Part shown: positions 13,899 through 57,505 of the stretch, in pieces | Position numbering within the stretch: the first letter of the stretch is position 1 | Layout of the letters: every line of letters begins with the position of its first letter | Assembly (NCBI GenBank): GCA_965235115.1 | Contig: OZ249436.1 | Location: forward strand, 24,120,001-24,184,000 | Direction of reading: 5' to 3' | Length of the DNA: 64,000 bases | Source of the DNA: Laetmonice hystrix | Lineage: Eukaryota | Made by a program: the position numbers and the translations under genes | Notes under the pieces: generated by a model | What the model saw: only the letters and a program-made list of their open reading frames with translations | The model's database searches: none | What the model was told of the DNA's origin: nothing

Positions 13899-13913
13899 GC
13901 AGCGCGCTGGCTC

Positions 13914-17136: not shown

Positions 17137-17153
17137 CGGGACGCCAAACGAGT

Positions 17154-20474: not shown

Positions 20475-20627
20475 CTGCAATAAAAATAGATCATCATATA
20501 AGTTTCTTTGTGATTAAGGGCAAAAGGAATCAAGTAATTGAAAATCAGTAAACTTTCACACCTTGGATATTTTAAAATGTCATGTTTCTTAATCTACATA
20601 CATGCATATGTGTACATAAATAACAAC

Positions 20628-26170: not shown

Positions 26171-28640
26171 TAACATAGACAACTTTTTTTACACTAGTTA
26201 GTATTGGATAAGTGTGACCTATAAATGGACCTTTGGGCCCATGGGGGGTCTTCAGACCCCCCTCCCCAGCCAGCCCCCCCCCCCCTGGTTACAGGCCTGA
26301 GTAATAGTTCTAGAGGAAAAGAATGAGGGGCGGGGTCACCCATCAATTTTAAAGGTTACAGCCTGGTAAACATTCAGCGCCTTGCTGAACATGGTAATGT
26401 GGTAACAACGCGCAGCACTGGGTAGCACTTTGCACACTCCCAGTTTCCCTTTAAAAGATGCGTGGTCAGAAGTTGCAGTATAATAATGACCAGTTCTGTC
26501 AAACTTGTCAAGGCCACGATTTTTGTCATGCACCACTCTGCCCACTTTTGTCACACCGAACATTTCCCCCTAAAAACCCTCATTTCTGCCGAAACCTGCA
26601 GGCAGCAGGGCATCATTTTCTATGGTTCCAATGATTTCTAAATGGTATTGTTCACACTGCTTCAACAGAGTGAAGTTGAAGAATGTGCTTCAACAATCTC
26701 TGCCAAAATGATCTCTGCGGCATGTTCCAAAGGTCCAAAAATTAACATCTTTCTGATTCTGTGTGCATTGGTGCTAAAGCTGTCGCAGGCTTTTTCTTTT
26801 AATCAAAATTTATTATGGCTATGATTTAAGTCAAAAACTGTTTTCTTATACTCTAAGAAGTTTCTATTTTCTGATTATGTTTACACTCAGAAACGGCAAA
26901 AGAAGGGACCAAGTCAGTTCCGTCCTGGCCACACTGATATGAAACTACAGATTTAAATTCAAACATTCTTGCATAAATAAACATGACAGCACATGAATGT
27001 AGTCTAATATAACATTGTGTAACCATAGACTAAATGTAAACAGCTATGAAGCATGCAATATACTATCTGTAATATTCGTCAATTAGATAAATTTACTCTT
27101 TTGCAACTTTCATTGTTCAAAACACTAAACTGGTCAAACCCTAGTCAGCAGCGAAGTGAACTTCTGACTATGGATATCATCTGACTATGGGGTCAAACTA
27201 TGTCACATGTGGAGGGAAATAGCAGATGCACGTTATGTCCTTTAAGAATTTACAGGCGCAGTTCGAGATGAATTTTGCTGAATTTATATTCTTTACAATC
27301 TCTGTGTCTGCTACCATCCTATCCTACTCAAGTTGTGGCACAACTTCATGGGTGGGGTATCTAAACTACCGAGTATATCCTCGATTGCTGTTCCTGGTTA
27401 CAACTGATGTAACTGTTATGAAAGGCCCGGTCGGAGTGACAGCCCCCAAAAGAGTTAGAGAAATGCAGCCTGGAACAACATTCATATTAATCATACCACG
27501 TGACAATGCATTGGCCAATGACAACACAGCGAACAAGACAACACAAGAAAATTTTGTTCTGTTCATTTTACGCTCAAAATGCAGCTATTCAGCCCGTATT
27601 TATGGTAGGTGGCTATTATGATAACAACATCAAGCTGACAATACAATGCCGCGATAAGCACTGGCACTACATCTTCTAGAAAAATGATGGTAGAAAACTG
27701 AGTAAAGCTGAGGTGGCGACATGAGCTAAGCAGGCACTTTCAACAGGTCAAAATGCTGAGTGGTAGAAGCTAGAAGTATGGACAGAAAAAAAGAGTCAAA
27801 AGTTTGAGTTACTCACTGTGGCAATGAATCCCTACAAACACAAGCACAACATAAGTATTATTCGATGACTGAAACCTTCCTTCCTTTAAATGGGTGAACT
27901 GGCTGTTGGTTCAGTTACTGTCCTCTAGCTGTTGATAGCATATAGCCGGTCTGAATAAGTTCATATTCGAAATTTCCAAAACCCATCATGGCGTTTTAAT
28001 CAGGCAAGGGTCCTGTCTAAAAGTGACCCTTCATTTGACCTTTGACCTTAGGGACAACTGGCTCCTGGGTCAGAATCCAGTTGAATCGTTACTTCTTCCC
28101 CATTTTTTCGTAAAATTTGACAATATTTGGTATTACTACTCTACAATGAAAAGTTCAAAACATACAAAGAGGGATTAGTGATTTGACCTATATTCACTGA
28201 ACCACGCGACCTTAAAATTTTCAGCAGTGGTCAGTTTAGATATTTATCGTGTTACGTGTTACTAGTTACTATTGAACATGAACAGGAAGTGATCTTTCAT
28301 TTGGCACCATTATTTTGTAGGTCATGTGACCTATGACGTCATAAGGAGGTCACCTATATTTTCCCAGGGCTATAACTTGTAAATGGTTGAAGATAGAGCC
28401 ATAGTTACCATTAAACACTAATAGGAACTCATATATGGTCATTTCCAGGGGGGAAAACCCCCACCTTTCCTTTTTTGGTGTTTTTAGGCTCTGAAACAAT
28501 AAATAATGTACCCAGATACAAAATTCTTTCCATATACGTTGTCCAAGGTGTGCTCTTTTGATATAACTAACAAAACGAATTGTGACCACCATTCACTTGG
28601 AGTAGGATGCTAAGAAAATATCAATGTTGCATTGCATTGA

Positions 28641-29310
28641 AGGGGAATGGGCTTTTGAAATTGTCAATGTTAGTGTACACTATTATTATCCCATTGAAAT
28701 TGTCAGGTTTCGTCTTCCTTATTATCATACAATTTCAAAATCCCATTCCCCCAAGGGGGTGAATGGGATTATGAAATTGTATGGTTTCATCTTCTTTTTA
28801 TTATGCCATCCCCCCGATAGGGGGATGGGATCTTAAAATTGTATGGTTTCGTCTTCCGTATCATTTTTTTTTTTTATCCCATTCACCCTTCCTTGTCTGG
28901 TTCCTTGTCTGGTTTCGTCTTCCCTATTATTATTATCCCATCCCCCGTCAGGGGATGGGATCTTGAAATTGTCTGGTTTTGTCTTCCCTATTATTATTAT
29001 CCCATTTCCCTGACGGGGAAATGGGATTTTGATTTTGTATGGTTTCGTCTACACTATTATTATTATTATCCCATTTCCCTGACGGGGAAATGGGATTTTG
29101 ATTTTGTATGGTTTCGTCTACACTATTATTATCCCATTCCCCTGTACAGGGGAATGGGATTTTGAAGTTGTCGTGTTTGCGTGTACTTTATTATCCCATT
29201 TCCACAGAGTGGAAATGGGATCTTGTTGTATGGTTTCGTGTACACTATTATTATCCCATCCCCTACGGAGGGGATGGGATTTAGAAATTGTGTGGTTTCG
29301 TCTTCTGTAT
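28641..29310 (+). repeat. Array of ~10 stacked hairpin 5' boxes of Helentron-associated (HINE-like) elements
   Basis: Units of ~60-70 bp: atcccatYYcc-loop-ggRRatgggat, a conserved ttgtatggtttcgtct-like segment, then (tat)n. Starts at 28688, 28740, 28803, 28876, 28935, 28999, 29068, 29131, 29193, 29253. Confidence 0.88.
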
Positions 29311-32300
29311 TATTTTTGGCGTCGTAGTTGTAGTAGTAGTAGTAGTAGTAAACTTGTATGTCTATCTCAGTCAATTTTCAAAATATCGAAATGAAATTTG
29401 GCACACATCTTGACAATGACGAAGTATGGTCAGGCATCGAATCCTGACGTCATGTGACGTCACGTCATAACGTGATGACGTCAAACGTATTATGAAAATT
29501 GAAGCCATTTTTAAGCTCATATTGGGAATTTTTTTAAAAACCCGTCATGGCCTCATAATCGGCCATAGGTGCTGCCTCAATTTGAGTCTTGATTTGACCT
29601 TTGACCTTTGACCTTAGGGTGAACTGGGTCATTGGTCACAAATCAGTTAAATTGCTTCTCCTTTTCTATTTTTTGGTAAAATTCGACAATATTCGGCAGA
29701 AACACTCTCTAACGAAAGGTTCACAATACGATTCCAAGGATTAGCGATTTGACCTATTTTTACCGAACCACGTGACTTTGAAGTTTGTCACTTTTGACAT
29801 TTTTTTCTAAAACTGCTTTAGTCATATAGGAATCGTGTATTTGGTCAATAGATATGTGCTGCTATTGACGATTGATCACTTTGCATATTTCTTTTCATAA
29901 ATTTACCAATATCTTTTTTATTTATGATGAAATAATGTAATCTGACGTTGACAGGCTCTACCTTAAACCTGTTTAAGATAGCCATATACAAATACAACAA
30001 TTACAAAGTGTATAGATTCAGGTATACCACTGGCTGTTTAGTTCTTGTTTTGGAAAGGTAATATGGCCAGAATTGTAAGTTTTAATGGGTATAGTCTTCA
30101 TAATAATATTTTTGCCGTCTGACTGTTGGCATCTCTGAATACACAGATCTCCCACTGTGATGCGGCCGCCGGTCCCTGGCCAGGCCGGGAGAGAGTTACG
30201 TAAGTGCTGGTGATAAGGGCCGGCCGGCCGGCCTACTCCCCCTCCCTCCCAGTGAGGGAGGAATATGATTGTGTATTCAGGTTCTATCCCCCATGATAAC
30301 TTTCCACGAAATGTTTGGGCAGGGGTTAGGGTTAATATCAGGGATAGGGGTAGGGTAGGGATATGTTTTGGGGAGGTGTAGGAACTGGGGTTAGGGGTTA
30401 GGGGTTAGGGGTTAGGGATAAGGTCAGGGCCATGAATCTTTCCTTTCCACCAAATTTCGTGGAGTTTAAGTTATCATGGGCGATATACCTGTATTCAGAA
30501 CTGACTTAGCTGTGCCTTTGAACTGTAGGTGTAACTGCCTAATGCATTTGTTTTTGAATCTTATGTAGGAGAGCTGAATAAAACAATACTACTGATTGTT
30601 GGTTGTGGAGTTCAAGTGACACGACAAGCTTTTGGTCAGCTGCACTTGGTTTAGCCTGAGCCAACAGTCTGGTGTGGATGACATTCGCACCTATTGGTAA
30701 AGTTTCATGATGTATGACTACGTGTTGGCTAAATGGCGAGAGATAGAAGTGAACGAACGGTGTGCACAGTAGACAGGTATGCAGTCGTCCTGGCGAGCAG
30801 CACACACAATAGATGCAGCAATCACTTGAGCGGGTCTGCGGAAGGGAGAAGGGGAACGCTCTGTGAGAAATACTTAAGGACTGTTTATAGAAGAGGTACC
30901 TTCTCAGTCATATAACATGCCAGCCATAGGGCGGCAGCTCTCAATCAGAGGAGCCGGTCAGGGGGCGGTCAGTTAATTGGACGTGGGCCACCGGCCAATG
31001 ACCAGTGACCATCCTTTAAACTGGGACTGGGGCCAAAACGGGAACGAGGGGATATATGAGAGCACCAAGAGAGAGAGAGAGAGAGACTAGGGGAGAAGGA
31101 GCAGAGAAAGGACAGAGATATAGATTTGTCTATGAGGAACATATAGACACTGACTGCCTAGTGACATATTGGTCGAAGCGGGACAACCGTGTGCCTCAGG
31201 AATAAAAGCTTCAAAACTCAAGCGACGACTCTACTACCAAGAAGAAATGTTAACAAGGGTGAAGAGAAAATTAGCACTGTAATTAGACACATTGAACTGT
31301 TATGTTATGAGGCTATCATTTTTGTATAATACTAAAATATATAGGAAAGCACTTTTCAGTGCACAAGTCAACTTGCCATGGGCAGATGCGCCCAGAAAAA
31401 AATGAGTGCCGGGCGGTAGTTTTCCGCTAGCAGCGAAGGCGCAAGGTTTTCAGTTGGCAAGGGGTGCAGATGGGGAGATATTTTTTCAGATGATAGGCCT
31501 GATAAAAATTCCTGCCGGGCAGCACTTAAACCATTTTAGTTTTGTGCCAGGCGGCTAAAATCGGTGCCGGGTGGCGCCGCCCGGCGCCGCCCGGCGCCGC
31601 CCGGCGTGGGCACATCCCTCTATACCCCCACTCTTTCTTTTTGAAGAATTGACAAAAAATTATTGTTAGGCTAGCCACGGGTCCAGGATTTTCAGCAGAG
31701 GGGTCTCGGGAAATCTTAAAAAATTAAAAGCTCTTATAAAACGATTTTCCGCCTTTTAGGGCCATTTTAGGGCATTATATTTTGTGGATTCATCACTCAA
31801 CTAGTTGAAAATAGCCGGAATGCTTTGCACCTGTTCGTTCCGTGTTGAAGGGAAAAAGAATCTATGTTCTGGCGGAGAATGGGGTCTACCGACACGCGCC
31901 TTAAATACTTTGAGAAACTTTACATCTATCTCCAGAAATAGCGTTTTTTGACCTTCTAAATTCCAGCAAAGAACCTCGATACCTGGATCTGTGCATGCCT
32001 GCGGGAGGAGCATGACGTTATGATGTTATCATTATTTCTTCAGCCTATAACTTGTAAACGGTGCAAGATGGAGCCATGGTTACTATTGAACAGGAATAGG
32101 AAGTCATATACATTGTATGCTCTTTCAATTGACACCAAGATTTATGATGTAATGTATCATTATTATGTCATAATGATGCCATTGACATCTTCGAAGGTTT
32201 CTAAATCCTAAACCATTCAAGATAGAGCAATGGTTACCATTTAACCCTAATAGGAAGTCATATATGATCTTTCACTTGACATTTTTTTAGGTATTTTTCT

Positions 32301-32574
32301 CAGGGCTATAACTTGTAAATGGTAGAAGTTAGAGCTATAGTTACTATTAAACAGTAATAGGAAGTCATATAGCCTACATGCTCTTTCATTTGAGACCAAG
32401 ATTCATTACATAGTATGACGTGTCACCTCATAATTACGTCATTGGCATCTTCTAAAGCTTATAGGTCATTAACTGTGCAAGATCGAGCCATAGTTTACCC
32501 TACTCAGAACATGTCATATATCACGTGACTCCCCGGGGATGGGATCAATTGTGGTATCGCCACAACGTGTCTAG
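29253..32574 (+). mobile_element. HINE-like element A (innermost of the nest)
   Basis: 5' box atcccatcccc; (tag)n; 3' subTIR ggggatgggat 32535-32545, hairpin ttgtgg/ccacaa, ctag end. Confidence 0.8.
30278..30491. mobile_element. Small MITE with internal (ttaggg)-like repeats
   Basis: cagg...cctg ends with longer imperfect IRs (ccatgataac / gttatcatgg); TSD tatt; empty-site versions tgtgtattcagaa at ~45380 and (reverse) ~23430. Confidence 0.8.
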
Positions 32575-32575
32575 T

Positions 32576-34418
32576 TATTATTCTTCCTGTAGTAAGACAA
32601 GGCTGGCCATTCGCTCAGTTTTTAAAGTATCTGAATCGAACTTGGACAGAAGGTTCACCTAGGCAAGGACACCTGGCACCCAGATGCATTACGTCATAGG
32701 ACGTAATTTGGACGTTTTATGACGTAATATTGGCGTTTTTCAGCTAAATTTTGAAGTCGTTTTTCATAGTGCTCTGAGAAGATACTCAAGAAGCGTTAAT
32801 GCCATCTGATGAACATTAAGTCCACTAATAATTTTCTAGGTGAAGTTGACCTGTGACCTTTGCCCTTAGTCGAAATTAGGTCAGAGGTCGGAAAACGCTT
32901 AAAACGTATCTTCTCCCTCAATTTTCAATAAAATTTCACCAAATTGGGCAGAGAGGCTCCTGATAGGAGGGTGCTTAAAAGTTTGGCTGGATTTTTTGAT
33001 TTGACCTAGTTTCACCCTGTCACGTGACTTTAAACATGTGCATATGTTATGTTTGCATAGAGAATATACAATTTTGTATCTATGCAATATCTAAGCAATA
33101 TCTAAGCATATTTTAGACAGGTTTGTTAGCCTGTCATACATAAAACATGTTTCAATTATTTTTTTTTCAGAATTGACCCTGTGACCTTTGACCTTTGGCA
33201 AAATTAGTTGCAATATATGGAATCGCCTGTAACTTGAAAACAAGGCAAAATAAGCCAATAGTTGCTATTAATCAAGTATAGGAAGTCATATATTGCCTTT
33301 CATTTGGCGCCATTTGTACTTCGCTACAGTGACCTTGAAAGGTCAAATCTATGACCTGCATAATTATATTCAATGCTCTGTATCTTGGAAACCGTGCACA
33401 ATAGGCCCATAGTTACTATTAAACATAGATAGGAAGTCATATATGGCCTTTCATTTGGCGCCATTTGTACTTCGCTACAGTGACCTTGAAAGGTCAAATC
33501 CATGACCTACATATATTCAATGCTCTGTATCTTTGAAACCGTGCACAATAGGCCCATAGTTACTATTAAACATGGATAGGAAGTCATATATGGCCTTTCA
33601 TTTGGCGCCATTTTTATTTCTCTGGAGTGACCTTGAAAGGTCAAATTGGTCACCTGCCAATATTCAGAGCTCTGTATCTTGGAAACCGTGCATGCTAGGT
33701 CCATGATTACTGTTAATCATGGATAGGAAGTCATATATGGGCTTTCAATTAGCGCCATCTTTTTTTCTCTGGAGTGACCTTGAAAGGTCAAATTGGTGAC
33801 CTGCCAATATTCAGAGCTCTGTATCTTGGAAACCGTGCATGTTAGGCCCGTGGTTACTGTTAATCATATATAGGAAGTCATATATGGGCTTTCAGTTAGC
33901 GCCATCTTTTTTTCTCTGGAGTGACCTTGAAAGGTCAAATTGGTGACCTGCCAATATTCAGAGCTCTGTATCTTGGAAACCGTGCATGTTAGGCCCGTGG
34001 TTACTGTTAATCATATATAGGAAGTCATATATGGGCTTTCAGTTAGCGCCATCTTTTTTTCTCTGGAGTGACCTTGAAAGGTCAAATTGGTGACCTGCCA
34101 ACATTCAGAGCTCTGTATCTTGGAAACCGTGCAAGCTAGGTCCATGATTACTGTTAATCATGGATAGGAAGTCATATATGGCCTTTCATTCGGCGCCATC
34201 TTTATTTCAATACAGTGACCTTGAAAGGTCAAATCTATGTTCCGCCAATATTCAGATTTTGTATCTTGGAAACGATGGATGATAAGCACATAGGTACTAT
34301 TAAACATGCATAGGAATTAAGTTGAGATGTTTTTTCTTCAATGTCACCTGCCTTTGTTCTTGCCCTCCTATGATACAGGAAATGGGATTTGGTGTTGCCC
34401 AGCAACCCATCGCTCTAG
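32576..34418 (+). mobile_element. Body and 3' end of HINE-like element B (5' box at 29193)
   Basis: 3' subTIR ggaaatgggat 34378-34388, hairpin gttgc/gcaac, ctag end. Confidence 0.78.
33230..34320 (+). repeat. 147-bp tandem repeat, ~7 copies, inside element B
   Basis: gtgaccttgaaaggtcaaa recurs at 33329, 33480, 33627, 33774, 33921, 34068, 34215. Confidence 0.95.
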
Positions 34419-34420
34419 TT

Positions 34421-35546
34421 ATCCCATCCCCCCGATAGGGGGATGGGATCTTAAAATTGTATGGTTTCGTCTTCCGTATTATTCCCGTAGTAGTAGTAGT
34501 AGTAGTTGTAGTAGTTGCTTTTGTGCATACAGCTCAGTCATTGATAAAGATATCCAAATGAAACTTGGCAGGGACATTCACCATGGTAGAGAGAATCGAC
34601 CTCTATAGTTATTACGTCATACGACGTCACGTCATGACGTCATGACGTATTTTGCATTTTAAACTGATAGGCATTTCTTGAAGTCATAATCCATAGTTTC
34701 CCAAAACTTTTCATTGCCTAATAATCGGGCATAGACCCTTTTCACTAATCTTCATTATTTTGACCTTTGACCTTTGACGTCATGGAAAAGTAGGTCATAT
34801 GTCCTAAAGTGGTCAAATTCCTACTCCTGTGCCATTTTTTGAGAAAATATAATACTTTTTGGTGGACAGGTCTTCTGTAGTGAGCTTTATTTGCTCGAGT
34901 CGGGAATAAGCAATTTGACCTATTTTCGCTGTACCACGTGACTTTGAAGTTTGTCACTTTTGACATTTCTTTCTAAAACCATTTCAGTCATTTAGGAATC
35001 GTCTATTTGGTCATTAGATATGTGCTGCTATTGACGATTGATCACTGTGCATAATTCTTTTCATAAATTTACCAATAATTTTTAATTTATGATAAAATAT
35101 ATCTTATCTGACTTTGCAGGCTCTACCTTAAAACTTGTTTAAGATAGCCACATACAAATAGAACAATTACAAAGTGGCAGAGGGGTCTCGGAAATCGAAA
35201 TGAAAATGAAAATTGATGTTGATAGATCACTAATATTATTGAAACAGCTGTAACTCGGAAAGGGGGCCAGGTAGAGCTATGGTTACTATTGAAGCCATAA
35301 TAGGAATATGTTCTTTCAAAAGATACCAAAATCTATGATGTATAGGGTGACGTGTTACATGACAATGACGTCATTGATAGATGACCAATAATAATTATTG
35401 AGGTCATATAGGAAGTAATAATATATGCTCTTTCGATCTACGGGCCTATCGATGACGTGGAGGTAGTCTAACATGATAATGGATCTATGATTTTCATTGC
35501 CAGGGGATGGGATACAAGATGTTGGCCCAAGCCACATCGGCGCTAG
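34421..35546 (+). mobile_element. Complete, uninterrupted HINE-like element (1.1 kb)
   Basis: 5' box atcccatccccccgatagggggatgggat, (tag)n microsatellite, 3' ggggatgggat + hairpin + ctag, flanked by TT. Confidence 0.85.
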
Positions 35547-35547
35547 T

Positions 35548-37143
35548 TATTATTATTATTATTATTGTGGTTGTAAGACAAGGGTCATATCTCAACAAGT
35601 TTTCAGAATATCTCAATGAAACTTGGCCGAACCATAGTTCATGGGCCTAAGAGCTCATATTATTTTGCGTTAAGTCATATGACATACCGTCATGATGTTA
35701 TGACGTCATAAAGACGTTTTTTAAGGGCATGGAAGCTACCTCATCTTCGAGTACCAAGATCATCTAGCCAAAAGTCATTCAAAGCAGAGCCTTACCACTT
35801 AGGGGGCAATAATTTTCTTCATCAGTTTGACCTCTGTCCTATGACCTGTCTGACTTGAAGGTCAAAACATAGATAACAGTCAAAATGTTTCTCCTCTTTC
35901 ATTTTTCGCAGACTCTTCTCTAGCTTTGGTTTATACCTTCTCCATATTGGGGCTGATCGACTGATGCCAAAATTTTTAAAATGTGACGTCATATGACCCA
36001 GTCACCTGACATCAAAATTTGGTTCTTTGGCCGGTGTACCAGAATTAAGTCATAGCTCAACCAGTTTTCGACCGATCCCAATGAAACTTCGTGTGCTTTA
36101 ACAGGGTGGGATGCAGAGCCAAATTTATGCAAATTTATTTCAATGACGTAACAGTGACGTCATCTACCTAATTAAAATAGGACTTCAGTAGTTAAACAGA
36201 TATGATCCTCGATAGCTCAGTGGGTAATACACCCGACATAAAGGCTGAAGATCATGGGTTCAATTCCCACCAAGGGCAGATTTTTTTTTTTCGTTTTTCT
36301 TGTAACAAAGGCTGAAGATCATGGGTTCAATTCCCACCAAGGACAGATTTTTTTTTTCGTTTTTCTTGTCAGACAGTACAGCTCATCTCTTTAAATGCTT
36401 AGGAGGCCTAGGCAGGGGAAATGTTGTCATGGTTTTTTTTTCTTTATTAATTTTTGATATAGAATTGGAGTACTGAGACAGTAGCGGTTTCTAACTCATT
36501 TTTCGAGTTATCTGGATGAAACTTGCAGTAAAAATTGACCACAGGAGGAATTCCTCGACTTATATAATAATACATCATGTGACACCATGACGTCATGAAT
36601 ACATTATGAATAGTGCAACCTGGTACTGCACCAGGAAAAGCTATCCAGAATTCTTTTATGCCATCTTCGTGCCCCTTAGGGGTCTCTAAATGTTAAAATT
36701 CATTTGACCTCTGACCTATGCCATTTGTCAGGTACAGATCACAGGGTTGGAAACAGTCAAAACATTATTTATGTGGAAATGTTTTGACAAAATTGCTCAC
36801 AAAATTAAAACCATTTTTTCTCTGGGGTTATGTGAAAACCAAGGTGTACACCAGTCCCCCAGGAACACTTGATGAACTTCGCAGTCCCATAATCATAGCT
36901 TTTCAAGAAATTCTGCATGATATGGTAACCAGAGCAATCGAAAGTATGTGACGCCGAGCAGTGATCTGTGGAGGCAACCATGGATTCCATGTTGAAGAAC
37001 TCTTTATGGAGGATTAAATCCAGCAAAAATTACCCTTTGCATGCAAGAAATGCAATAAATGTTTTGTTTTAATTCTTCACCATCATGGAATTAACCATTA
37101 ACAGGGAATGGGATCCATTGTTGCCTGCAACAAGCCTGACTAG
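35548..37143 (+). mobile_element. Body and 3' end of HINE-like element C (5' box at 29131)
   Basis: 3' subTIR gggaatgggat 37104-37114, hairpin ttgttgc/gcaacaa, ctag end. Confidence 0.78.
36811..37000 (+). pseudogene. Tc1/mariner-type transposase C-terminal fragment inside element C
   Basis: FFLWGYVKTKVYTSPPGTLDELR..I..AFQEI...MVTRAIESM*RRAVIC...GFHVE matches the segment that follows the SPDL motif in Tc1/mariner transposases. Confidence 0.8.
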
Positions 37144-37145
37144 TT

Positions 37146-40100
37146 ATCCCATTTCCCTGACGGGGAAATGGGATTTTGATTTTGTATGGTTTCGTCTACA
37201 CTATTATTATCCCATTTCCCTGACAGGGAAATGGGATTTTGATTTTGTATGGTTTCGTCTACACTATTATTATTATCCCATTTCCCTGACGGGGAAATGG
37301 GATTTTGATTTTGTATGGTTTCGTCTACACTATTATTATTATTATTCCTGTTGTAAGACAAAGTGTATATCTCGGTCACTTTTTAAGATAGCAGGTTGAA
37401 ACTTGCAGGGAGGGTTCATCATGGGATGAAGATCTGTGCATATGAAGCAGGACTTCATGCGACGTCATGTCTTGGTTTTATGACGTCTCAAACACGTCAC
37501 ATGGAGCATCAATTTATCAACTCCCAACACAAAACTACTGTTACTTGGGGAAATATTGGTTATAGATCCTCTTCGTGGATGGTTCTCTAAGATACTTGTT
37601 CCATAACTTGACCTTCGATCATTACCCTTTCTGAGATTCGGGTCAAAGGTCACAATATGGTTAAATCCTTACTACTCTCTCATTTTTATGAAAATCTTGA
37701 CCAAACCACTTCTGGATGTTCCTAGTGGATAGCTTAAAATTGTGGGGCCGTTGTTTAGCGATCGGACCTTTTTTCACTGAATCACGTGACATCAAAGTTT
37801 GATTTTTTGGTCAGTTTACCAGAAATCGGTCATATCTCTGGCAGTTTTTAACAGATCTTAATGAAACTTGGTAGGCTTAAAGAGGATGGGATGCTGAGCT
37901 AGATTTATGCAAACTTTTTTCTGTGACGCCACTCTTTTGTGTCATGAAGTCATCCACTTAATTCAAATAGGACCCAGGTACCTCTATACCCGTGAGTCTC
38001 AATAGCTGAGTGGGTAGCATGCCCGACTTAAAGGCTGGAGATCATCGGTTCGAATCCCACCAAGTACAAAAACTTTTTTCTCATTTTTCACACTCTGAAA
38101 ACCAAAGCACCACCAGGCAGCATATGAGGCCTTGTCACAGTCATAGTTATGAAATGTTTTGACATACATGGTTCTCAAAGATAAAGTTTACCAGAAATCG
38201 GTCATATCTCTGGCAGTTTTTAACAGATCTTAACGAAACTTAAGAGGATGGGATGCTGAGCTAGATTTATGCAAACTTTTTTCTGTGACGTCACTCTTTT
38301 GTGTCATGACGTCATCCACCTATTTCAAATAGGACCTAGGTACCTCTACAAGCGTGAGTCTCAATAGCTGAGTTGGTAGCATGCCCGACCTAAAGGCCGG
38401 AGATCATGGGTTCGAATCCCACCAAATACGGAATTTTTTTTTCTCATTTTTCAGACTCTGAATACCAAAACACCAGCAGGCAGGATATGAGGCCTTGTCA
38501 AAATCATAGTTATGACATATTTTGAAATACATGGTTTTCAGAGATAATTTTCCCATAACTTAACCTCTGTTAATTACCCTTTCTGAGATTTGGGACAAAG
38601 GTTCCAGGACTGACAGTGACAGTAAAACCAAGATGGCAGAGTGGTAAGGCTATGGGCCACTTTAGTTACTTGATAGCATACGAATGGCACCTGGCGTTTT
38701 CCTCATGACGTCCGGAGGAAATGGGATTAGTGTATTGCTTGCAATCATGATGTCTAGTTATTATCCCATTTCCCTGACGGGGAAATGGGATTTTGATTTT
38801 GTATGGTTTCGTCTACACTATTATTATTATTATTCCTGTTGTAAGACAAAATGTATATCTCGGTCACTTTTTAAGATATCAGGTTGAAACTTGCACGGAA
38901 GTTCCATCATGGGATGAAGATCTATACATATGAAGCAGGACGTCATGCGACGTCATGTCTTGGTTTTATGACGTCTCCAACACGTCACATGGAGCATCAC
39001 TTCATCAACTCCCAACACAAAACTACTGTTACTTGGGGAAATATTGGTTATAGATCCTCTTCGTGGATGGTTCTCTAAGATACTTGTTCCATAACTTGAC
39101 CTTGGATCATTACCCTTTCTGGGATTCGGGTCAAAGGTCACAATATGGTTAAATCCCTACTACTCTCTCATTTTTTTTAAATTCTTGACCAAACCACTTC
39201 TGGATGTTCCTAATGGATAGCTTAAAATTGTGGGGCCGTCGTTTAGCGATCGGACCTTTTTTCACTGAATCACGTGACATCAAAGTTTGATTCTTTGGTC
39301 AGTTTACCAGAAATCGGTCATATCTCTGGCAGTTTTTAACAGATCTTAATGAAACTTGGTAGGGTTAAAAAGGATGGGATGCTGAGCTAAATTTATGCAA
39401 ATTTTTTTCTGTGACGTCACTCTTTTGTGTCATGACGTCATCCACCTATTTCAAATAGAACCTAGGTACCTCTGCACACGTGAGTCTCAATAGCTGAGTG
39501 GGTAGCATGCCCGACCTAAAGGCTGGAGATCATGGGTTCGAATCCCACCAAGTACAGAAACTTTTTTCTCATTTTTCACACTCTGAAAACCAAAACACCA
39601 CCAGGCACGATATGAGGCCTTGTCACAGTCATAGTTATGAAATGTTTTGACATACATGGTTCTCAAATATAAAGTTTACCAGAAATCGGTCATATCTCTG
39701 GCAGTTTTTAACAGATCTTAATGAAACTTAGTAGGCTTAAAGAGGATGGGATGCTGAGCTAGATTTATGCAAACTTTTTTCTGTTACGTCACTCTTTTGT
39801 GTCATGACGTCATCCACCCATTTCAACTAGGACCTAGGTACTTCTATAGCAATGAGTCTCAATAGCTGAGTGGGTAACATGCCCGAACTAAAGGCTGGAG
39901 ATCATGGGTTCGAATCCCACCAAGTACAGAAACTTTTTTCTCATTTTTCAGACTCTGAATACCAAAACACCACCAGGCAGGATATGAGGCCTTGTCACCC
40001 TCATAGTTATGAAATGTTTTCACATACATGGTTCTCAGAGATAATTTTCCCATAACTTGACCTCTGTCAATTACCCTTTCTGAGATTTGGGACAAAGGTT

Positions 40101-43100
40101 CAGGACTGACAGTAAAACCAAGACGGCAGAGTGGTAAGGCTATGGGCCACTTTAGTTTAGTTACTTGATAGCGTACGAATGGCACCTGGCGTTTTCCTCA
40201 TGACGTCCGGAGGAAATGGGATTAGTGTATTGCTTGCAATCATGATGTCTAGTTATTATTTATTATTATTCCTGTTGTAAGACAAGGGGTATATCTCCGT
40301 CACTTTTCAAGATAGCAGGTTGAAACTTGCAGGGAGGGTTCATCATGGGATGAAGATCTGTACATATGAAGCAGGACGTCATGCGACGTCATGTCTTCGT
40401 TTTATGACGTCTCAAACACGTCACATGGAGCATCAATTTATCAACTCCCAACACAAAACTACTGTTACTTGGGGAAATATTGGTTATAGATCCTCTTCGT
40501 GGATGGTTCTCTGAGATACTTGTTCCATAACTTGACCTTGGATCATTACCCTTTCTGAGATTCGGGTCAAAGGTCACAATATGGTTAAATCCTTACTACT
40601 CTCTCATTTTTTTGAAAATCTTAACCAAACCACTTCTGGATGTTCCTAGTGGATAGCTTAAAATTGTGGGGCCGTTGTTTAGCGATCGGACCTTTTTTCA
40701 CTGAATCACGTGACATCAAAGTTTGATTCTTTGGTCAGTTTACCAGAAATCGGTCATATCTCTGGCAGTTTTTAACAGATCTTAATGAAACTTGGTAGGC
40801 TTAAAGAGGATGAGATGCCGAGCTAGATTTATGCAATTTTTTTTCTGTGACGTCACTCTTTTGTGTCATGAAGTCATCCACCTATTTCAAATAGGACCCA
40901 GGTACCTGTATACCCGTGAGTCTCAATAGCTGAGTGGGTAGCATGCCCGACCTAAAGGCTGGAGATCATCGGTTCGAATCCCACCAAGTACAAAAACTTT
41001 TTTCTCATTTTTCACACTCTGAAAACCAAAACACCACCAGGCAGGATATGAGGCCTTGTCACAGTCATAGTTATGAAATGTTTTGACATACATGGTTCTC
41101 AAAGATAAAGTTTACCAGAAATCGGTCATATCTCTGGCAGTTTTTAACAGATCTTAATGAAACTTAGTAGGCTTAAAGAGGATGGGATGCTGAGCTAGAT
41201 TTATGCAAACTTTTTTCTGTGACGTCACTCTTTTGTGTCATGACGTCATCCACCTATTTCAAATAGGACCTAGGTACCCCTACAAGCGTGAGTCTCAATA
41301 GCTGAGTGGGTAGCATGCCCGACCTAAACGCTGGAGATCATGGGTTCGAATCCCACCAAATACCGAAATTTTTTTCTCTCATTTTTCAGACTCTGAATAC
41401 CAAAACACCACCACGCAGGATATGAGGCCTTGTCAAAATCATAGTTATGAAATGTTTTGACATACATGGTTTTCAGAGATAATTTTCCCATAACTTGACC
41501 TCTGTCAATTACCCTTTCTGAGATTTGGGACAAAGGTTCCAGGACTGACAGTAAAACCAAGATGGCAGAGTGGTAAGGCTATGGGCCACTTTAGTTACTT
41601 GATAGCATACGAATGGCACCTGGCGTTTTCCTCATGACTTCCGGAGGAAATGGGATTAGTGTATTGCTTGCAATCATGATGTCTAGTTATTTATTATTAT
41701 TCCTGTTGTAAGACAAGGGGTATATCTCCGTCACTTTTCAAGATAGCAGGTTGAAACTTGCAGGGAGGGTTCATCATGGGATGAAGATCTGTACATATGA
41801 AGCAGGACGTCATGCAACGTCATGTCTTCGTTTTATGACGTCTCAAACACGTCACATGGAGCATCAATTTATCAACTCCCAACACAAAACTACTGTTACT
41901 TGGGGAAATATTGGTTATAGATCCTCTTCGTGGATGGTTCTCTAAGAAACTTGTTCCATAACTTGACCTTGGATCATTACCCTTTCTGAGATTCGGGTCA
42001 AAGGTCACAATATGGTTAAATCCTTACTACTCTCTCATTTTTTTGAAAATCTTAACCAAACCACTTCTGGATGTTCCTAGTGAATAGCTTAAAATTGTGG
42101 GGCCGTTGTTTAGCGATCGGACCTTTTTTCACTGAATCACGTGACATCAAAGTTTGATTCTTTGGTCAGTTTACCAGAAATCGGTCATATCTCTGGCAGT
42201 TTTTAACAGATCTTAATGAAACTTGGTAGGCTTAAAGAGGATGGGATGCCGAGCTAGATTTATGCAAATTTTTTTCTGTGACGTCACTCTTTTGTGTCAT
42301 GAAGTCATCCACCTATTTCAAATAGGACCCAGGTACCTGTATACCCGTGAGTCTCAATAGCTGAGTGGGTAGCATGCCCGACCTAAAGGCTGGAGATCAT
42401 CGGTTCGAATCCCATCAAGTACAAAAACTTTTTTCTCATTTTTCACACTCTGAAAACCAAAACACCACCAGGCAGGATATGAGGCCTTGTCACAGTCATA
42501 GTTATGAAATGTTTTGACATACATGGTTCTCAAAGATAAAGTTTACCAGAAATCGGTCATATCTCTGGCAGTTTTTAACAGATCTTAACGAAACTTAATA
42601 GGCTTAAAGAGGATGGGATGCTGAGCTAGATTTATGCAAACTTTTTTCTGTGACGTCACTCTTTTGTGTCATGACGTCATCCACCTATTTCAAATAGGAC
42701 CTAGGTACCTCTACAAGCGTGAGTCTCAATAGTTGAGTTGGTAGCATGCCCGACCTGAAGGCCAGAGATTATGGGTTCGAATCCCACCAAATACCGAAAT
42801 TTTTTTTTTCTCATTTTTCAGACTCTGAATACCAAAACACCCCCAGGCAGGATATGAGGCCTTGTCAAAATCATAGTTATGAAATATTTTGCCATACATG
42901 GTTTTCAGAGATAATTTTCCCATAACTTGACCTCTGTCAATTACCCTTTCTGAGATTTGGGACAAAGGTTCCAGGACTGACAGTAAAACCAAGATGGCAG
43001 AGTGGTAAGGCTATGGGCCACTTTAGTTACTTGATAGCATACGAATGGCACCTGGCGTTTTCCTCATGACGCCCGGAGGAAATGGGATTAGTGTATTGCT

Positions 43101-44550
43101 TGCAATCATGATGTCTAGTTATTATTATTATTATTCCTGTTGTAAGACAAAGTGTATATCTCGGTCACTTTTTAAGATAGCAGGTTGAAACTTGCAGGGA
43201 GGGTTCATCATGGGATGAAGATCTGTGCATATGAAGCAGGACTTCATGCGACGTCATGTCTTGGTTTTATAACGTCTCAAACACGTCACATGGAGCATCA
43301 ATTTATCAACTCCCAACACAAAACTACTGTTACTTGGGGAAATATTGGTTATAGATCCTCTTCGTGGATGGTTCTCTAAGATACTTGTTCCATAACTTGA
43401 CCTTGGATCATTACCCTTTCCGAGATTCGGGTCAAAGGTCACAATATGGTTAAATCCTTACTACTCTCTCATTTTTTTGAAAATCTTGACCAAACCACTT
43501 CTGGATGTTCCTAGTGGATAGCTTAAAATTGTGGGGCCGTTGTTTAGCGATCGGACCTTTTCTCACTGAATCACGTGACATCAAAGTTTGATTCTTTGGT
43601 CAGTTTACCAGAAATCGGTCATATCTCTGGCAGTTTTTAACAGATCTTAATGAAACTTGGTAGGCTGAAAGAGGATGGGATGCTGAGCTAGATTTATGCA
43701 AACTTTTTTCTGTGACGTCACTCTTTTGTGTCATGAGGTCATCCACCTATTTCAAATAGCACCCAGGTACCTCAATACCCGTGAGTCTCAATAGCTGAGT
43801 GGGTAGCATGCCCGACCTAAAGGCTGGAGATCATCGGTTCGAATCCCACCAAGTACAAATTTTTTTTTCTCATTTTTCACACTCTGAAAACCAAAACACC
43901 ACCAGGCAGGATATGAGGCCTTGTCACAGTCATAGTTATGAAATGTTTTGACATACATGGTTCTCAAATATAAAGTTTACCAGAAATCGGTCATATCTCT
44001 GGCCGTTTTTAACAGATCTTAACGAAACTTAATAGGCTTAAAGAGGATGGGATGCTGAGCTAGATTTATGCAAACTTTTTTCTGTGACGTCACTCTTTTG
44101 TGTCATGACGTCATCCACCTATTTCAAATAGGACCTAGGTACCTCTACAAGCGTGAGTCTCAATAGATGAGTTGGTAGCATGCCCGACCTAAAGGCCGGA
44201 GATCATGGGTTCGAATCCCACCAAATACAGAATTTTTTTTTCTCATTTTTCAGACTCTGAATACCAAAACACCACCAGGCAGGATATGAGGCCTTGTCAA
44301 AATCATAGTTATGAAATATTTTGACGTACATGGTTTTCAGAGATAATTTTCCCATAACTTGACCTCTGTCAATTACCCTTTCTGAGATTTGGGACAAAGG
44401 TTCCAGGACTGACAGTAAAACCAAGATGGCAGAGTGGTAAGGCTATGGGCCACTTTAGTTACTTGATAGCATACGAATGGCACCTGGCGTTTTCCTCATG
44501 ACGTCCGGAGGAAATGGGATTAGTGTATTGCTTGCAATCATGATGTCTAG
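37146..44550 (+). mobile_element. Five near-identical ~1.43-kb bodies of HINE-like family D plus four 5' boxes
   Basis: Boxes atcccatttccctgacggggaaatgggat at 37146, 37209, 37275, 38763; bodies end ggaaatgggat..attgcttgcaat..ctag at 38757, 40252, 41686, 43118, 44550; each has an internal ~360-370-bp direct repeat. Confidence 0.92.
37996..38068 (+). pseudogene. tRNA-like (pseudo-tRNA) sequence; two per family-D unit, 10 copies in 37996-44230, related copy at ~36207
   Basis: A-box tagctgagtgg and B-box ggttcgaatcc at tRNA spacing, T-run downstream; acceptor and anticodon stems pair poorly. Confidence 0.7.
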
Positions 44551-44565
44551 TTATTCTTTGCGTTG

Positions 44566-44570
44566 TAGTT

Positions 44571-44616
<46 letters not shown>
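44566..44616 (+). repeat. (TAG)n microsatellite at the start of a further HINE-like body
   Basis: ~15 tag units after the last ctag end; following sequence resembles 29310-29800 and 27960-28240. Confidence 0.9.
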
Positions 44617-44617
<1 letters not shown>

Positions 44618-45407
44618 TAGACATTTCGTTCTATCTCAGTCATTTTTCAAGATATCTCAATCAAATTTGGCTCAGATCTCGACCATGACAAAGTCAGGTC
44701 ACACAATCAATCATGACGTCACGTCACGTCACGTCACATTATGACGTCATGACGTCAAACGTGTCTTGCACATTGGGGCCATTTTTTTAAAAGTCATATT
44801 CGAAATTTTCAAAACCCATCATGGCGTTTTAATTAGGCAAGGGTCCTGTCTCAAGTTGACCCTTCATTTGACCTTTGACCTTTGACCTTAAGGAGGACTG
44901 GCTACTGGGTCAGAATCGGGTTGAATCGCTACCCCTTCCCCATTTATGGGAAAAAATTGACAAAATCTGGCAGTACCCCTCTACATCGAAAGCTTTAAAA
45001 CATACAAAGAGGGATTAGCGATTTGACCTATATTTACTGAACCACTTGACCTTAAAGTTTTCAACAGTGGTCAGCATTACGTAACTGCTGCTGATAAGGT
45101 CGGGAGGTGACTCCCCCATTCCTCCCAGTCAGGATGGGTTGATGTTGATGGACCCTTGTGCTGGGAACAGACTTAATTGAATAGCTGGGCATTTGTATTT
45201 ATATAAAACTGTAGGTATTACTGTCTAATATATTATATTCTTGAATCTTATATTGGAGGAGAGCGGAATAAAACAACACTGATGATATTAAGCCGTCTTC
45301 TTGAACTTAAGAGAGAATTCTTAGCCAGCTGCACCCTATATTTTCCTCCCAGTCAGGGTGGGGTTGGAGGAATGTGATTGTGTATTCAGAATACACAAAG
45401 TGACAAT

Positions 45408-49215: not shown

Positions 49216-52200
49216 CCTAATCATTTTCCTGATGGTCGAAATACAATAACAGAAAACAGGCAGCTGGAGCTCTCGCCATCCAAATATTTCCAAGGTAGAT
49301 TGATGAATGTTGACAATCGATTCGCAAAAGACCCTACATATTTTTTGCGCTTTACATCACAGAGTTAAGGTTTATTTCAAGCAATATATCAACTGCACTA
49401 AAGGAAAGGTCAAAAACGAACTAAAGATGGTAGAAAGATCACAGCAGGTACATTATCAGAAAGAAAGGGTATAGATCATGTCACTGGAGAAGATACAGGC
49501 TTCCGACATTTCCCTACTTTGAAAGGTTCACCAGATTACTTGAAACAGACTCAGCACGATTTATTTGCAATGATCAGACAGCTAGGCATTCCCACATTCT
49601 TTGCCACTTTTAGCTGTAACAATGATTGGCCTGAAATCGTTACTGCTATTAAAGCACAACAGGGTGAAACAGTTGATGTTGACTCCTTGTCGTGGGAGGA
49701 GAAGTGCAACATTCTCGCATCAAATCCAGTCACATGTGCTCGAATGTTTGATCATCGTGTTAAACTTTTCCTACACACGGTCCTTTGGTCTCCTACTAAA
49801 CCCATAGGTGAAATTATTGATTGGTTCTACCGTGTTGAATGGCAAGCACGAGGAAGTCCTCATATACACTGTTTATTCTGGGTAAAAGATGCTCCTGTTA
49901 TAGACAGAGATTCAGACCAAGCTGTGTGTGATTTTATTGATCGATACGTCTGGTGTCAAATTCCTGAAGAAGATTTAAATCTGCGTGAAAAAGTAACACA
50001 TTACCAAAAGCACATTAAAAACCACAGAAAGAGTTGCAAAAAGGGTAATCGTCCATGTAGGTTCAACTTCCCTAAACCTGTTTCAAAGAACACCTTTATC
50101 TCAAGACCTGCAACTATGACTGATGGTCAAGTTCCAAGCAAAGCAGAAATGCAATCAGCGTCAGAGGAACTGTCTGCTGTTAGACATTTGATGAATCAAA
50201 AAGATCAGGACGAAAATATGTCCATAGATGAGGCCTTGCAAAAAGAGGGAATTGCTTGGGAAAGATATAGAAGGTGCTTTGATGTTGCAACAAAGAAGGT
50301 GTCCATTGTAATGAGACGTGAATTGAAAGATTGTTGGACTAATCATTATAACCCTTCTCTACTTGACATTTGGAATGCAAACATGGATATCCAATACATC
50401 ACTGACCCATACAGCTGTGTCATGTACATTCTTTCTTACATAAGTAAAGCTGAACATGAACTTTCTGAAATTCTACGTAACGCCCAATGAGAGCTCAGAG
50501 AAGGCAATATAGAATTCAAAAAAGAAATGAGAAAACTTGGAAATGTGTACCTCAATTACCGAGAAGTGAGTTGTCAAGAAGCTGCCCATCGCATGTGTAA
50601 CCTTCATTTGAAAGAGTGCTCACGTGCAGTGGTTAACCTACCTGTCAATGAGAATGCTACAAGATTGAGCCTCCCATTGGCAAAGATTGAAGCAAAGGCA
50701 AAAGAAAATGAAAACGATGACGACATTTGGTTTAAAAACATCATAGATAGATACCAAGCCCGACCTGATGGTGAACAATTTGATAATATGTGTCTTGCTC
50801 AGTTTGCTTCTGAATATAGGATTGTTTATACAAAATCGCAAAATACAATACAGTTAAAAGGCAATTCTGGTATGATTCAAAAAAGGAGGAGTGAAAACTT
50901 TACAGTGATTTGATACCCGAGACATTCCAAGTCGAATAAGCCAGAATTGTTTTATCAAAGTCAACTAAAAGTGTACTTGAAGTGGAGACTTGACTTCAAT
51001 GTCAATTAAGGCCTGTCGGATATGTGACATATGAGGAGTTTTATGACAGTGGAGCAGTCAGATTGTCCAAGGGTCATGCCAATAAGACGGTTAAAACAAT
51101 TGTATCAGACAACCGGTTAAGATATGAAAAAGATGCTGATGTGTTGGATAATGCTTGGGAAATGCTACAAAACTCTGAAGGTCTAGAAGATGTTTGGGCT
51201 AGTGTTTCCATTGAAGCTGAAATGAGTAGACTAGACGCAGAAAGAGAAAGTCAAGCATTTCAGGAACAATTTGACGAACCATTGACAAACGATCATGATT
51301 ACATTGCTGATGAGTCACGAGGTCAGGTGCCAGGAACTCTTGCTATCGATCACAGTGATGATGGGTGTGTCACCAAAGCCGTCAAACTAATGTTGAAAAG
51401 TATGAATAAAAAACAGCAACAGATATTTTACACCATTCGAAAGTGGTGCCTTGAAAAAGTGAACGGTGCACGTCCTGAGCCGTTTCGAATATTGCTTAAT
51501 GGTGCTGCAGGTAAATCTTTACTGATCAAATGTATCTATTACGAGGCCACTAAAATTCTTCTACAGCAACAAAGTGACCAGAACCTGCCACCAGTATTAT
51601 TGACGGCTACTACAGGTTTAGCTGCTTTTAATGTTGATGGATGCACTGTTCATTCCTTGCTGAAAATAATTAAACCGCGTAAAGGACAATACCAACCTCT
51701 GTCCGAAAATGTACTCAACACCATGACTACAAACTTACGTGAAATGAAAATACTTGTAATTGATGAAATTTCAATGATGGGAAACCAGATCCTTGCGTAT
51801 GTGCACAAACGACTGGGGCAACTGAAGCATAACAAGGAATTGTTTGAAGGAATTTCGATTCTAGCTGTTGGTGATTTTTACCAGCTTCCACCCATAAGAG
51901 CAGGTTCACCGATTTGTGTTCCAAATACATGTGACTTGTGGATGGACAATTTTCAGTCTGTTCAACTAACAGAAATCATGAGACAGAAGGATGATGCAGC
52001 CTTTGCCTCGCTCCTCAATAGACTAAGATTAAAGCAAAAGAAAGCAAACTTGACCAATTCTGACAGAGAGACATTGTTGTCATGGGTCACACCTCCTGAA
52101 AACTGCCAACAGGATGCACTGTATATTTATGCAAGGAACAAAGAAGTCGATAATCACAACGAATCCATGCTGCAAAACAAATGCACTACTATTTCAGAAA

Positions 52201-53423
52201 TTATTGCTGTCTGGTAAAACTGGTAGACTAGAGGAAAGACAGGTCTCTAAATCTAATCAAAACGATGGTCTTCCCAGTAAATTAAAAATTGCTGTTGGGG
52301 CAAGAGTGATGGTGACAAAGAATATTGACACCGAACATGGCATTACAAATGGCGCCATTGGAACTATAACAGCAATATTGCCTCCATTACAGGGTAAACC
52401 GTTACCTGCAGCAGTCTGTATCAAGTTTGATAACAATGTTGGCCGAAGGTTGATAGAAAAAAAGAAAAACGCCACCGTTCCATTTGGTTCAGTGAAAGTA
52501 ATGCCGTATGAAGAAAAAATGGATCCTGTAGAACAAGAGAGAAAGGGAGCAATCCGAAAACAGTTTCCCCTGAGGTTGGCATGGGCGTGTACCATACATA
52601 AAGTTCAAGGTCTTACTGTGGATAAAATTGTTATTTCCATGAAGTCTATGTTCGAATCAGGACACGCTTATGTTGCTTTATAATGAAGATAAAATTTATC
52701 GAAATGACGGGGTTGCAGATGGTTTGGAACTGATGACCCAACTTGATCTGTCGAGTCCTCGTGAGAATGAGGATGGTAGACTTACTGTCGTCCATCACAA
52801 TGTTGAAGGATTGGCTCAGAATTTTGAAGGTTTAGCAAATCATTTCCAGATTTTTAATTCAGACATTATGTTACTATCTGAAACTTGGCTTTCTTCAACT
52901 GGACATTTAACAAATTTCCAACACCCAGATTTCTACCTCTTGACTAAACTGAGAAAAGATAGTTACAATATACAGTCCACTGGAAAAAGGTGGTGTAGCA
53001 ATTTATGTGAGGAAAACCATTGAACACTGGGGTCTTGTACTTTCTGTTACAAACCTAGAGTTTCTTCCACAAGTTGTGAGAATAGGTGATAAAATATATG
53101 TAGCTTGTGTTGTATATAGACCGGCAAGATACTCTACAACTTTGTTTTGTCCCACGCTACAAGACATGGTAACTCGTATGGAACAAACAATCCCGAATGC
53201 TGGTTATATAATTACAGGAGACTTTAATGAGGATTTAATGAAAGACCAGAACACAATAAAGAACCTAATGACTCATAATGGTTACCAACAAATAATGACC
53301 GAAGGAACCACACTTGGAAACACATTGTTAGATGTCATTTATGTGAAAAATGTTGACTTCAAGACATGTGGTGTCTTGCAAACCTTTTACAGTTATCATG
53401 ACGCAGTATTTATGCAAATTTGA
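49216..53423 (+). pseudogene. Helentron (Helitron2-type) Rep-Pif1 helicase-AP endonuclease polyprotein, 5'-truncated and decayed
   Basis: Rep: PTFFATFS, YRVEWQARGSPHIHCLFW (HUH), YILSYISK. Helicase: damaged Walker A GAAGKS, IDEISM, GDFYQLPP, QFPLRLAWACTIHKVQGLT. APE: HHNVEGL, LSETWL, TGDFNED, YSYHDAV. Confidence 0.93.
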
Positions 53424-56744: not shown

Positions 56745-57107
56745 CCCTTTCAGGGCGAACGATGCCTTGAGGCATTACCGTGCCAGGGCGGACGATGCCT
56801 TGAGGCATTACCGCCCCAGGGCGGACGATGCCTTGAGGCACTTTTTTGCCTACTTCGACCATTCCATGTAAATCCGGGCCTCTGATAGCAAGGACTGTCA
56901 ATCAACCAACTACAATTGTCGACTAGCTGTACTAACTCCTCCCCCTTACATATTACATTGATTGCTTTTGTCTTTTAGACATTTATGTGTCCCAAAATCA
57001 CGTTTTTCAAGACGAAAATCCAAAATGGCTCGCCCAGGTAGGGTGGTGCGCAAAACTGGGTCAGCCTCTGTGACGAATGTGACGTAACAAACGTCGCCGG
57101 CATAGGG
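56745..57107. mobile_element. piggyBac-type MITE inserted in the LINE RT
   Basis: TTAA at 56741-56744 and 57108-57111, ccct...aggg ends, three ~33-bp internal repeats (cagggcggacgatgccttgaggca). Confidence 0.88.
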
Positions 57108-57244
57108 TTAACTGGCTGGCTTGTGATTTAGCTAGATCATTAATTAATAGCTGCAGAGCAAGTACGGTGGAATGTTTGGAGCGGAACCCAAACTGTTTAG
57201 CATAAATACTGTTATGTTTCTCAAAGAAATTACTGAGTCGAGAG

Positions 57245-57505
57245 GGGCCTCGGGTGGCCGAGTGGTCTAAGGTGTCGGCTCCATCATGACACCTAGGACC
57301 ATCGCCTCACACCGCTGCGACCCGGGTTCGATTCCCGGCCTGGGCTGCATGTGTGAAAGGTTTGTCAGTCAGTTCCTTCCCGAAGGTCGGTGGTTTCCTC
57401 CGGGTACTCCGGTTTCCTCCACCAAGAAAAACTGACTTTCATCTCATCTTCACCACCGTGATATGACCCTGGCTGTTGCAAGGCGTAAAACCCCAAATAC
57501 CCCAT
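57245..57505 (+). mobile_element. tRNA-derived SINE with V-domain-like core
   Basis: A-box tggccgagtgg, B-box ggttcgattcc, core tttcctccgggtactccggtttcctcc, 11-bp TSD tgagtcgagag at 57234-57244 and 57506-57516. Confidence 0.92.

Follow-up and report, generated by a model that had tools for sequence, protein, structure and literature searches.

Is the block of 1.43-kb repeats at positions 37146-44550 of a 64,000-nt stretch of the Laetmonice hystrix genome (contig OZ249436.1, positions 24,120,001 to 24,184,000, forward strand; hereafter the window) satellite DNA, or was it built by transposition? The window is eukaryotic, repeat-rich DNA and contains no N. A preliminary description had reported five near-identical bodies and six short 5' boxes, with no box in front of the last three bodies, and this layout was borne out by the coordinates and the alignment. 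The boxes, called heads below, start at 28999, 29068, 37146, 37209, 37275, and 38763; their 56-nt core is identical in five of the six, while that at 37209 has one base different. Bodies A to E are 1412-1419 nt long, start at 37346, 38834, 40270, 41701, and 43135, and end with CTAG at 38757, 40252, 41686, 43118, and 44550, giving body-to-body periods of 1488, 1436, 1431, and 1434. A head immediately precedes A and B only; C, D, and E have none, and each is separated from the preceding CTAG by 15-18 nt of (TTA)n. These five repeats are rolling-circle transposons of the Helentron type and no true satellite. Their most likely origin, which we consider probable, is nested self-insertion of HINEs (non-autonomous Helentrons). 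A satellite is a long array homogenised by unequal exchange; here, five units were found, 1.7-5.2% apart (94.8-98.3% identity), with neighbours not systematically closest. The route from transposon to satellite DNA that had been suggested for this locus can be kept as far as a possible satellite seed is concerned, but five non-homogenised copies make no satellite.

The head and the body are the two ends of one non-coding HINE, and the intact element of this family (A-E and the six heads) is ~1485 bp long. The head comprises, in order, TT, an 11-nt repeat, a second copy of the repeat, 27 nt, and a 16-nt (TTA)n tract; the body ends with the 3' subterminal repeat, 30 nt, a weak stem, and CTAG-TT. 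The 11-nt subterminal repeat sits 2 nt after the TT at the head, and the exact complement of the head's first repeat begins 41 nt before the CTAG end in A-E. In the related bodies X1-X4 (listed below), the complementary repeat begins 40-44 nt before the CTAG end. These positions agree with the subterminal inverted repeats of HINEs (11-15 bp, placed 2-4 nt inside the 5' terminus and ~38-60 nt inside the 3' terminus). An inverted repeat of the DINE-1 type is present as a 5' hairpin with a 12-bp stem (-12.8 kcal/mol, z -5.04), and none of 200 shuffled sequences was equally stable. At the 3' end, stems of 4-8 bp were found at the expected place in all five folded tails, none of them significant (z 0.61 to -1.60). 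The microsatellite behind the 5' block and the central tandem repeats that mark HINEs were likewise observed, the latter as a 372-bp x 2 internal duplication in A-E and as 147-bp x 7.2 repeats in X2. The head hairpin pattern has 11 matches in the window, all on the plus strand and within 28.9-38.8 kb, and none in 100 shuffles of the sequence; all 11 begin with TT, and all nine tails of the cluster end with CTAG-TT. No reading frame of at least 150 amino acids was found in 28.6-45 kb (23 frames were listed for the window). The possibility that the box is an independent minisatellite was rejected, since its first repeat complements the 3' repeat of the body, with which it also aligns jointly as a single element.

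The five-body array occupies the interior of a same-strand nest of 16 kb (28.6-45 kb), which includes about six families with a total of 16 heads, 10 bodies, and 9 tails. Absent from the preliminary description were the four related-family bodies with the same end type in the 8 kb between the two groups of boxes (X1-X4), body F of a sixth family after E, and about ten extra diverged heads. Eleven stacked heads in 28630-29313 are followed by X1, X2, head 34419 with X3, X4, three heads, A, one head, B, C, D, E, and F:

28630-28932 (+): five outer decayed heads (~28630, 28686, 28740, 28801, and 28874; 28686 read by eye), with no matching body in the window
28933-28996 (+): head of the CCCC/GTA-body type, the best partner of body F
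28997-29128 (+): two family heads (28997 and 29066), one pairing with E and the other surplus
29129-29190 (+): head with the only TCCC subterminal repeat, the exact complement solely of the X4 3' repeat (0 mismatches to X4, 1 to each of the 8 other tails)
29191-29250 (+): non-family TTCC head, the last-in-first-out partner of X2
29251-32574 (+): head and body X1, (GTA)n type, with ~2 kb of other repeats inside; tail motif at 32535
32575-34418 (+): body X2, without a head; central repeats of 147 bp x 7.2 and a tail motif at 34378
34419-35546 (+): intact element, head and body X3, flush behind the CTAG of X2
35547-37143 (+): body X4, without a head and in part 71-73% similar to the family body; tail motif at 37104
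37144-37272 (+): two stacked family heads (37144 and 37207), which the nested reading pairs with D and C
37273-38757 (+): intact family element A, with hairpin head, 16-nt (TTA)n at 37331-37346, 372-bp duplication at 37813-38546, 3' repeat at 38717, and CTAG
38761-40252 (+): intact family element B, whose body is the most diverged of the five (4.7-5.2%)
40253-41686 (+): headless body C
41687-43118 (+): headless body D, the first ~890 nt C-like and the second subrepeat A/E-like (switch at ~42340-42590)
43119-44550 (+): headless body E, overall nearest to A (2.1%)
44551-45074 (+): body F of the (GTA)n type, with 75% similarity to X1; downstream, no tail was found

Outer head 28801 is 97% identical to head 34419, and head 34419 with X3 is 75% like head 29251 with X1 in an alignment that crosses the head/body border. 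One of the outer heads, at 28726-28783, has turned into a 58-nt near-palindrome (50 of 58 positions): in place of its left side stands the right arm in inverted copy, together with the following bases, as expected from fold-back synthesis on a single-stranded hairpin. A fragment 85% like body F, without head or tail, lies just upstream of the head stack (27961-28446, plus strand). A second, inverted cluster of the same repeats occupies 20620-22968 on the minus strand, where a tail of the same kind stands at 20666 and a related body lacking a head follows a 1.5-kb stretch with 76% similarity to the X1 interior (30874-32292).

The pairing of heads and bodies across families was modeled with heads as opening and bodies as closing brackets, counted from head 28933 inward; pairs were scored by the subterminal repeat and the head/body type, with type labels set by the analyst. 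The subterminal repeats of the heads differ (CCCC, TTCC, and TCCC), and the tails carry the complements. Strict last-in-first-out pairing gave nine matches among ten head/body pairs, and first-in-first-out pairing, with four of ten, was rejected. Four of the pairs are adjacent and trivial; among the six non-adjacent ones, five match, which corresponds to 72 of 2400 possible assignments (P = 0.03). The clearest pair is formed by the lone TCCC head 29129 and the lone GGGA tail of X4, exact complements 8 kb apart at the predicted position. The single failure is F against family head 28997. With its (GTA)n type, body F suits head 28933, the next one outward, so one family head is left surplus; F as the partner of a family head was rejected on its GTA type, yet its short-junction score is weak (11 vs. 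8).

Each of the ten heads after 28933 either follows (TTA)n or stands flush behind CTAG-TT; under nested insertion, this is what is left of the host's tract. Of the TT dinucleotides in the intact element, only 5 of 172 fall inside the (TTA)n tract, but the tract holds all four TTATT words. A plain preference for TT, the rule in the literature, is insufficient to explain this concentration, although the cluster came to attention through this very pattern. Counted from the GGRRATGGGAT motif, the first TT is reached after 29 nt in family heads, 30 nt in family tails, and 29-33 nt in all tails; by this near-equal spacing, the head end resembles the 3' end. When the nested blocks were removed by hand, the restored tracts of C, D, and E measured 29, 20, and 22 nt vs. 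16 nt in the intact element, which suggests that the tract was kept or lengthened in each round through a short duplication, carried-over flank, or slippage. A tentative explanation, to which we give less than even credence, is end mimicry: the transposase would recognise a resident copy by the head's second repeat, 29 nt, and TT and integrate at a fixed distance, the tract lengthening each round. If so, Helentrons would build self-renewing nests while stripping their own 5' ends, mobile elements would become immobile tandem units ready for satellite expansion, and the nests would record the order of family activity.

The anatomy, the junction sequences, the bracket-like matching of the ends, and the relationships among the bodies are direct observations; an order of events, an enzyme, a reason for the tract preference, and a fate for the surplus head can be proposed from them. 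A ~1485-bp HINE would be moved in trans by a putative Rep-helicase-endonuclease protein and insert at TT, its preferred target being the (TTA)n tract 27 nt behind its own 5' hairpin. A new copy landing in the tract would split the host into head and body, the tract would persist on both sides of the insertion, and its strand asymmetry would set the orientation. Repeated rounds would yield heads first and bodies after them in reverse order, with the bodies of one family forming a headless head-to-tail array. Related families with the same ends would have used the same site, and ordinary exchange among adjacent bodies probably started later, D being a likely C/E mosaic. Repeated insertion of the family into its own (TAT)n, as put forward in the preliminary description, explains the locus best, and the other families of the nest lend it independent support. 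A broken Helentron transposase gene is located 5 kb from the array (49402-53423, plus strand), where four reading-frame pieces encode Rep, Pif1 helicase, and endonuclease in order, the hallmark domains of Helentrons (domain scores: Helitron_like_N 1.4e-31, PIF1 5.8e-17, and Exo_endo_phos 2.2e-5). It is possibly kin of the mobiliser, although neither a matching head nor a matching tail was found in its vicinity.

The ends of the family are more conserved than the interior: across 97 nt (56 nt from the heads and 41 nt from the tails), one change was counted vs. ~8 expected (Poisson 0.003), and this leans towards separate functional donors. Several observations weigh against nested self-insertion. 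Measured against real interior windows, the quietness of the ends stands out less (8% of 41-nt windows have no changes, and 18% of 56-nt windows have at most one), and the identity of the heads could come from recent slippage or conversion. Bodies C and D have eight variants and an extra junction T in common, a pattern that local duplication would produce as well. Statistically, the pairing is modest (P = 0.03, or 0.06 when the subterminal repeat alone is scored), with its analyst-set labels, and the brackets are unbalanced: 16 heads face 10 bodies, one family head and five outer heads are bodiless, and F is tailless. The restored tracts of C, D, and E exceed 16 nt, so insertion was no clean split. 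The best tree with an A,B|C,D,E split was not rejected by the Shimodaira-Hasegawa (SH, 0.59) or Kishino-Hasegawa (0.13) tests, SH rejecting two of the three such trees. Finally, the comparison of A-E covers this locus alone. A head-pattern scan of metagenome contigs gave six loci, all isolated hairpins and none with a BLAST match to the window; the family tail had no matches in prokaryote genomes, nor the head pattern in viral contigs. Four sequencing runs of one organism contain 27-57% of sampled words from 28.9-38.8 kb, and the share of 0.11 in a fifth run is no evidence.

One alternative, which we hold unlikely, is that nesting seeded the first body-body junction only, after which headless units multiplied by unequal crossing-over and heads multiplied apart from them by (TTA)n slippage. 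The contention of the preliminary description that rolling-circle concatemers or unequal crossing-over should repeat box and body together does not hold for crossing-over once two bodies touch; the concatemer is unlikely in any case, as discussed below. Local exchange would account for the closeness of C and D (7 differences in the first 888 columns) together with their common variants and junction indel, and for heads that are nearly invariant 63-69-bp direct repeats between microsatellite; D, too, carries signs of exchange. However, neighbours are not generally closest. The outermost pair A-E differs by 2.1%, A-B by 5.1%, and B-C by 4.7%, and such closeness of A and E, while the intervening B is ~5% off (4.7-5.2% from the others), is unlike an array grown by neighbour exchange. 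Each body has 8-46 private substitutions (B 46, A 14, D 10, E 10, and C 8); the variants shared by two bodies number 8 in C+D, 4 in B+C, 3 in A+E, and 3 in B+E. Separate multiplication of heads and bodies would not give six heads and five bodies, nor two head groups flanking other families that pair correctly.

It is also improbable that the nest consists of transposition products inserted whole, either multi-headed chimeras (nicked at the outermost head and stopped at the first tail) or concatemers rolled off a headless circle after a cut at the tail-like site of the head. Multiple 5' termini moving as a unit are reported for Fusarium Helitron2 (PMC5148889), the six surplus heads are consistent with such products, the distance from GGRRATGGGAT to TT is similar in heads and tails, and the tract before C, D, and E is of full length (15-18 nt). 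A headless concatemer, with adjacent units copied from one template, predicts a clade of C, D, and E, but the number of alignment columns grouping these three vs. A and B is zero, and the three trees with this split had approximately unbiased (AU) test p values of 0.029, 0.003, and <0.001. The missing columns and the AU tests together make a single headless concatemer unlikely, and adjacent units do not behave as copies of one template. The pairing of X2 and X4 with distant heads of their own type is left unexplained as well, so that whole products give a good account of the surplus heads only. An assembly product, with collapsed or haplotype-switched repeats, D as an assembler chimera, and the sixth body missing, would fit D as a mosaic between the types of its two neighbours but is highly improbable in view of the many private differences in all five bodies, the window without N, and the cross-family end matching, which cannot arise by collapsing one repeat.

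Under nested self-insertion, a surplus family head and a mosaic body D have to be accounted for. Between D and C, the first 888 columns contain 7 differences and the last 529 contain 17 (Fisher 0.001, with the breakpoint picked after inspection). The second subrepeat of D has five derived states in common with A and E, as polarised by the first subrepeat. A triplet test of D as a C/E mosaic gave p = 0.001, or 0.05-0.06 when corrected for 60 triplets. Against a mosaic, column 1095 points in the opposite direction, and a grouping of C with D is not rejected when only the 3' part is used (AU 0.15). The 3' part of D differs from E at 9 of 528 positions and A from E at 8 of 518; being about as far from E as A is, the 3' part of D is no recent copy of E. 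Conversion from subrepeat 1 was rejected as an origin of the five sites common to B and C, since adjacent diagnostic sites in C keep the subrepeat-2 state. A C/E mosaic would fit a deletion that fused C-like and E-like bodies, removing one body and balancing the six heads, but this is suggestive only. The mismatch of six heads and five bodies had been taken to suggest a lost or collapsed body. The surplus family head is real, but a lost body is one of several explanations, and the five outer heads are also bodiless; the chance that a body was truly lost appears close to, though short of, even. The surplus could also stem from a double-headed donor or from slippage of the 63-69-bp head, both of which fit equally well, or else from a recombinant donor or a switch in the assembly.

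The comparisons with known systems below follow the available parts of the cited sources. The DINE-1/HINE layout is non-coding, with subterminal inverted repeats, a microsatellite, and TT flanks (PMC4067079; oyster Cg_HINE, PMC7492417), and sources for end structure and oyster arrays are PMC11417382 and PMC8268682. The elements studied here share with HINE/DINE-1 and Cg_HINE the subterminal inverted repeats, an extra 5' inverted repeat, the microsatellite, central tandem repeats, and TT flanks; they have a candidate for the short 3' palindrome, and differ from these systems in the 3' end, CTAG-TT with a weak stem. Clustering of HINEs beside related copies was mentioned by Thomas, Vadnagara and Pritham (2014; PMC4067079). 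The accounts of HINE/DINE-1 and Cg_HINE involve clusters and tandem arrays formed by termination bypass, whereas the present nest is ordered within the element's own microsatellite. For the Helitron2 element FoHeli of Fusarium oxysporum, self-insertion near the 5' end and multiple short 5' termini were described (Chellapan et al. 2016; PMC5148889), as found here; the same source reports three tandem copies in Metarhizium, arising from two insertions into the 5' end or by rolling circle, and describes surplus 5' ends as a product of Helitron self-insertion. The FoHeli cases are few, have multiple 5' ends with one 3' end, and, in the available main text, are linked to no named microsatellite target; unlike them, the nest unites ten elements of ~6 families at one site, with ends pairing in order.

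McGurk and Barbash (2018; PMC5932611) proposed that satellite DNA can be seeded by double insertion; there as here, an insertion-site preference yields tandems that unequal exchange can expand. The tandems in that work are complete elements around a duplicated host target, whereas here the target lies inside the element and the unit lacks the 5' end needed for movement. Helitrons of Paramecium insert into telomeric repeats with one strand targeted (PMC13085455); the strand of a simple repeat fixes the orientation in both systems, but theirs is a host telomeric repeat and ours an element-borne tract. Truncated plant Helitrons form rolling-circle arrays with many 5' ends (Xiong et al. 2016, as summarised in PMC12628747 and PMC8268682). 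These also have more 5' than 3' ends, but they repeat long 5' parts without the 3' terminator, while the unit in the nest keeps the 3' end and is without the 5' head. No account of ordered multi-family HINE nesting in the element's own microsatellite was found in a search of mainly open-access literature. The element type and self-insertion, the latter only outlined so far for this group, are already known; new are the nest depth, the ordered cross-family pairing, a (TTA)n target inside the element, and an array of headless bodies. They provide a concrete path by which rolling-circle transposons can become tandem arrays, distinct from the routes given in a 2025 review (PMC12628747). As the target lies inside the element, the array unit is a headless body. 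Such nests date families relative to one another and give a handle on target choice by Helentrons, an open question. Repeat annotation would read the locus as a 63-69-bp minisatellite and a 1.43-kb satellite, overlooking the transposon.

Among the other features of the window, a 56-nt stretch similar to the polymerase III A and B boxes occurs at 38003-38058 and at nine homologous places up to 44219, in each 372-bp subrepeat, and also in X4 (36213-36268). It is perhaps the head of a captured tRNA-derived short interspersed element, although ARAGORN and Rfam do not call it. ARAGORN found no tRNA genes in the window, and the five Rfam matches in 35.5-44.6 kb were all far below the curated thresholds. 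The region 60002-61980 contains a 335-bp unit x 4.2 with 98% identity, among 34-bp repeats, and a tRNA-like B-box stretch on the minus strand. Frames at 12924-18932 (+), broken by stops, presumably belong to a long terminal repeat retrotransposon (gag-, protease-, reverse-transcriptase-, integrase-, and then envelope-like, judged by their motifs), and 55638-58806 (-) contains fragments of an element that presumably resembles long interspersed elements. A C2-domain coding stretch at 20049-20513 (-) (Pfam C2, 1.1e-8) is probably an exon of a multi-C2 host gene, and a DDE transposase fragment (DDE_Tnp_1_7, 7.1e-36) is located at 62568-63047 (-).

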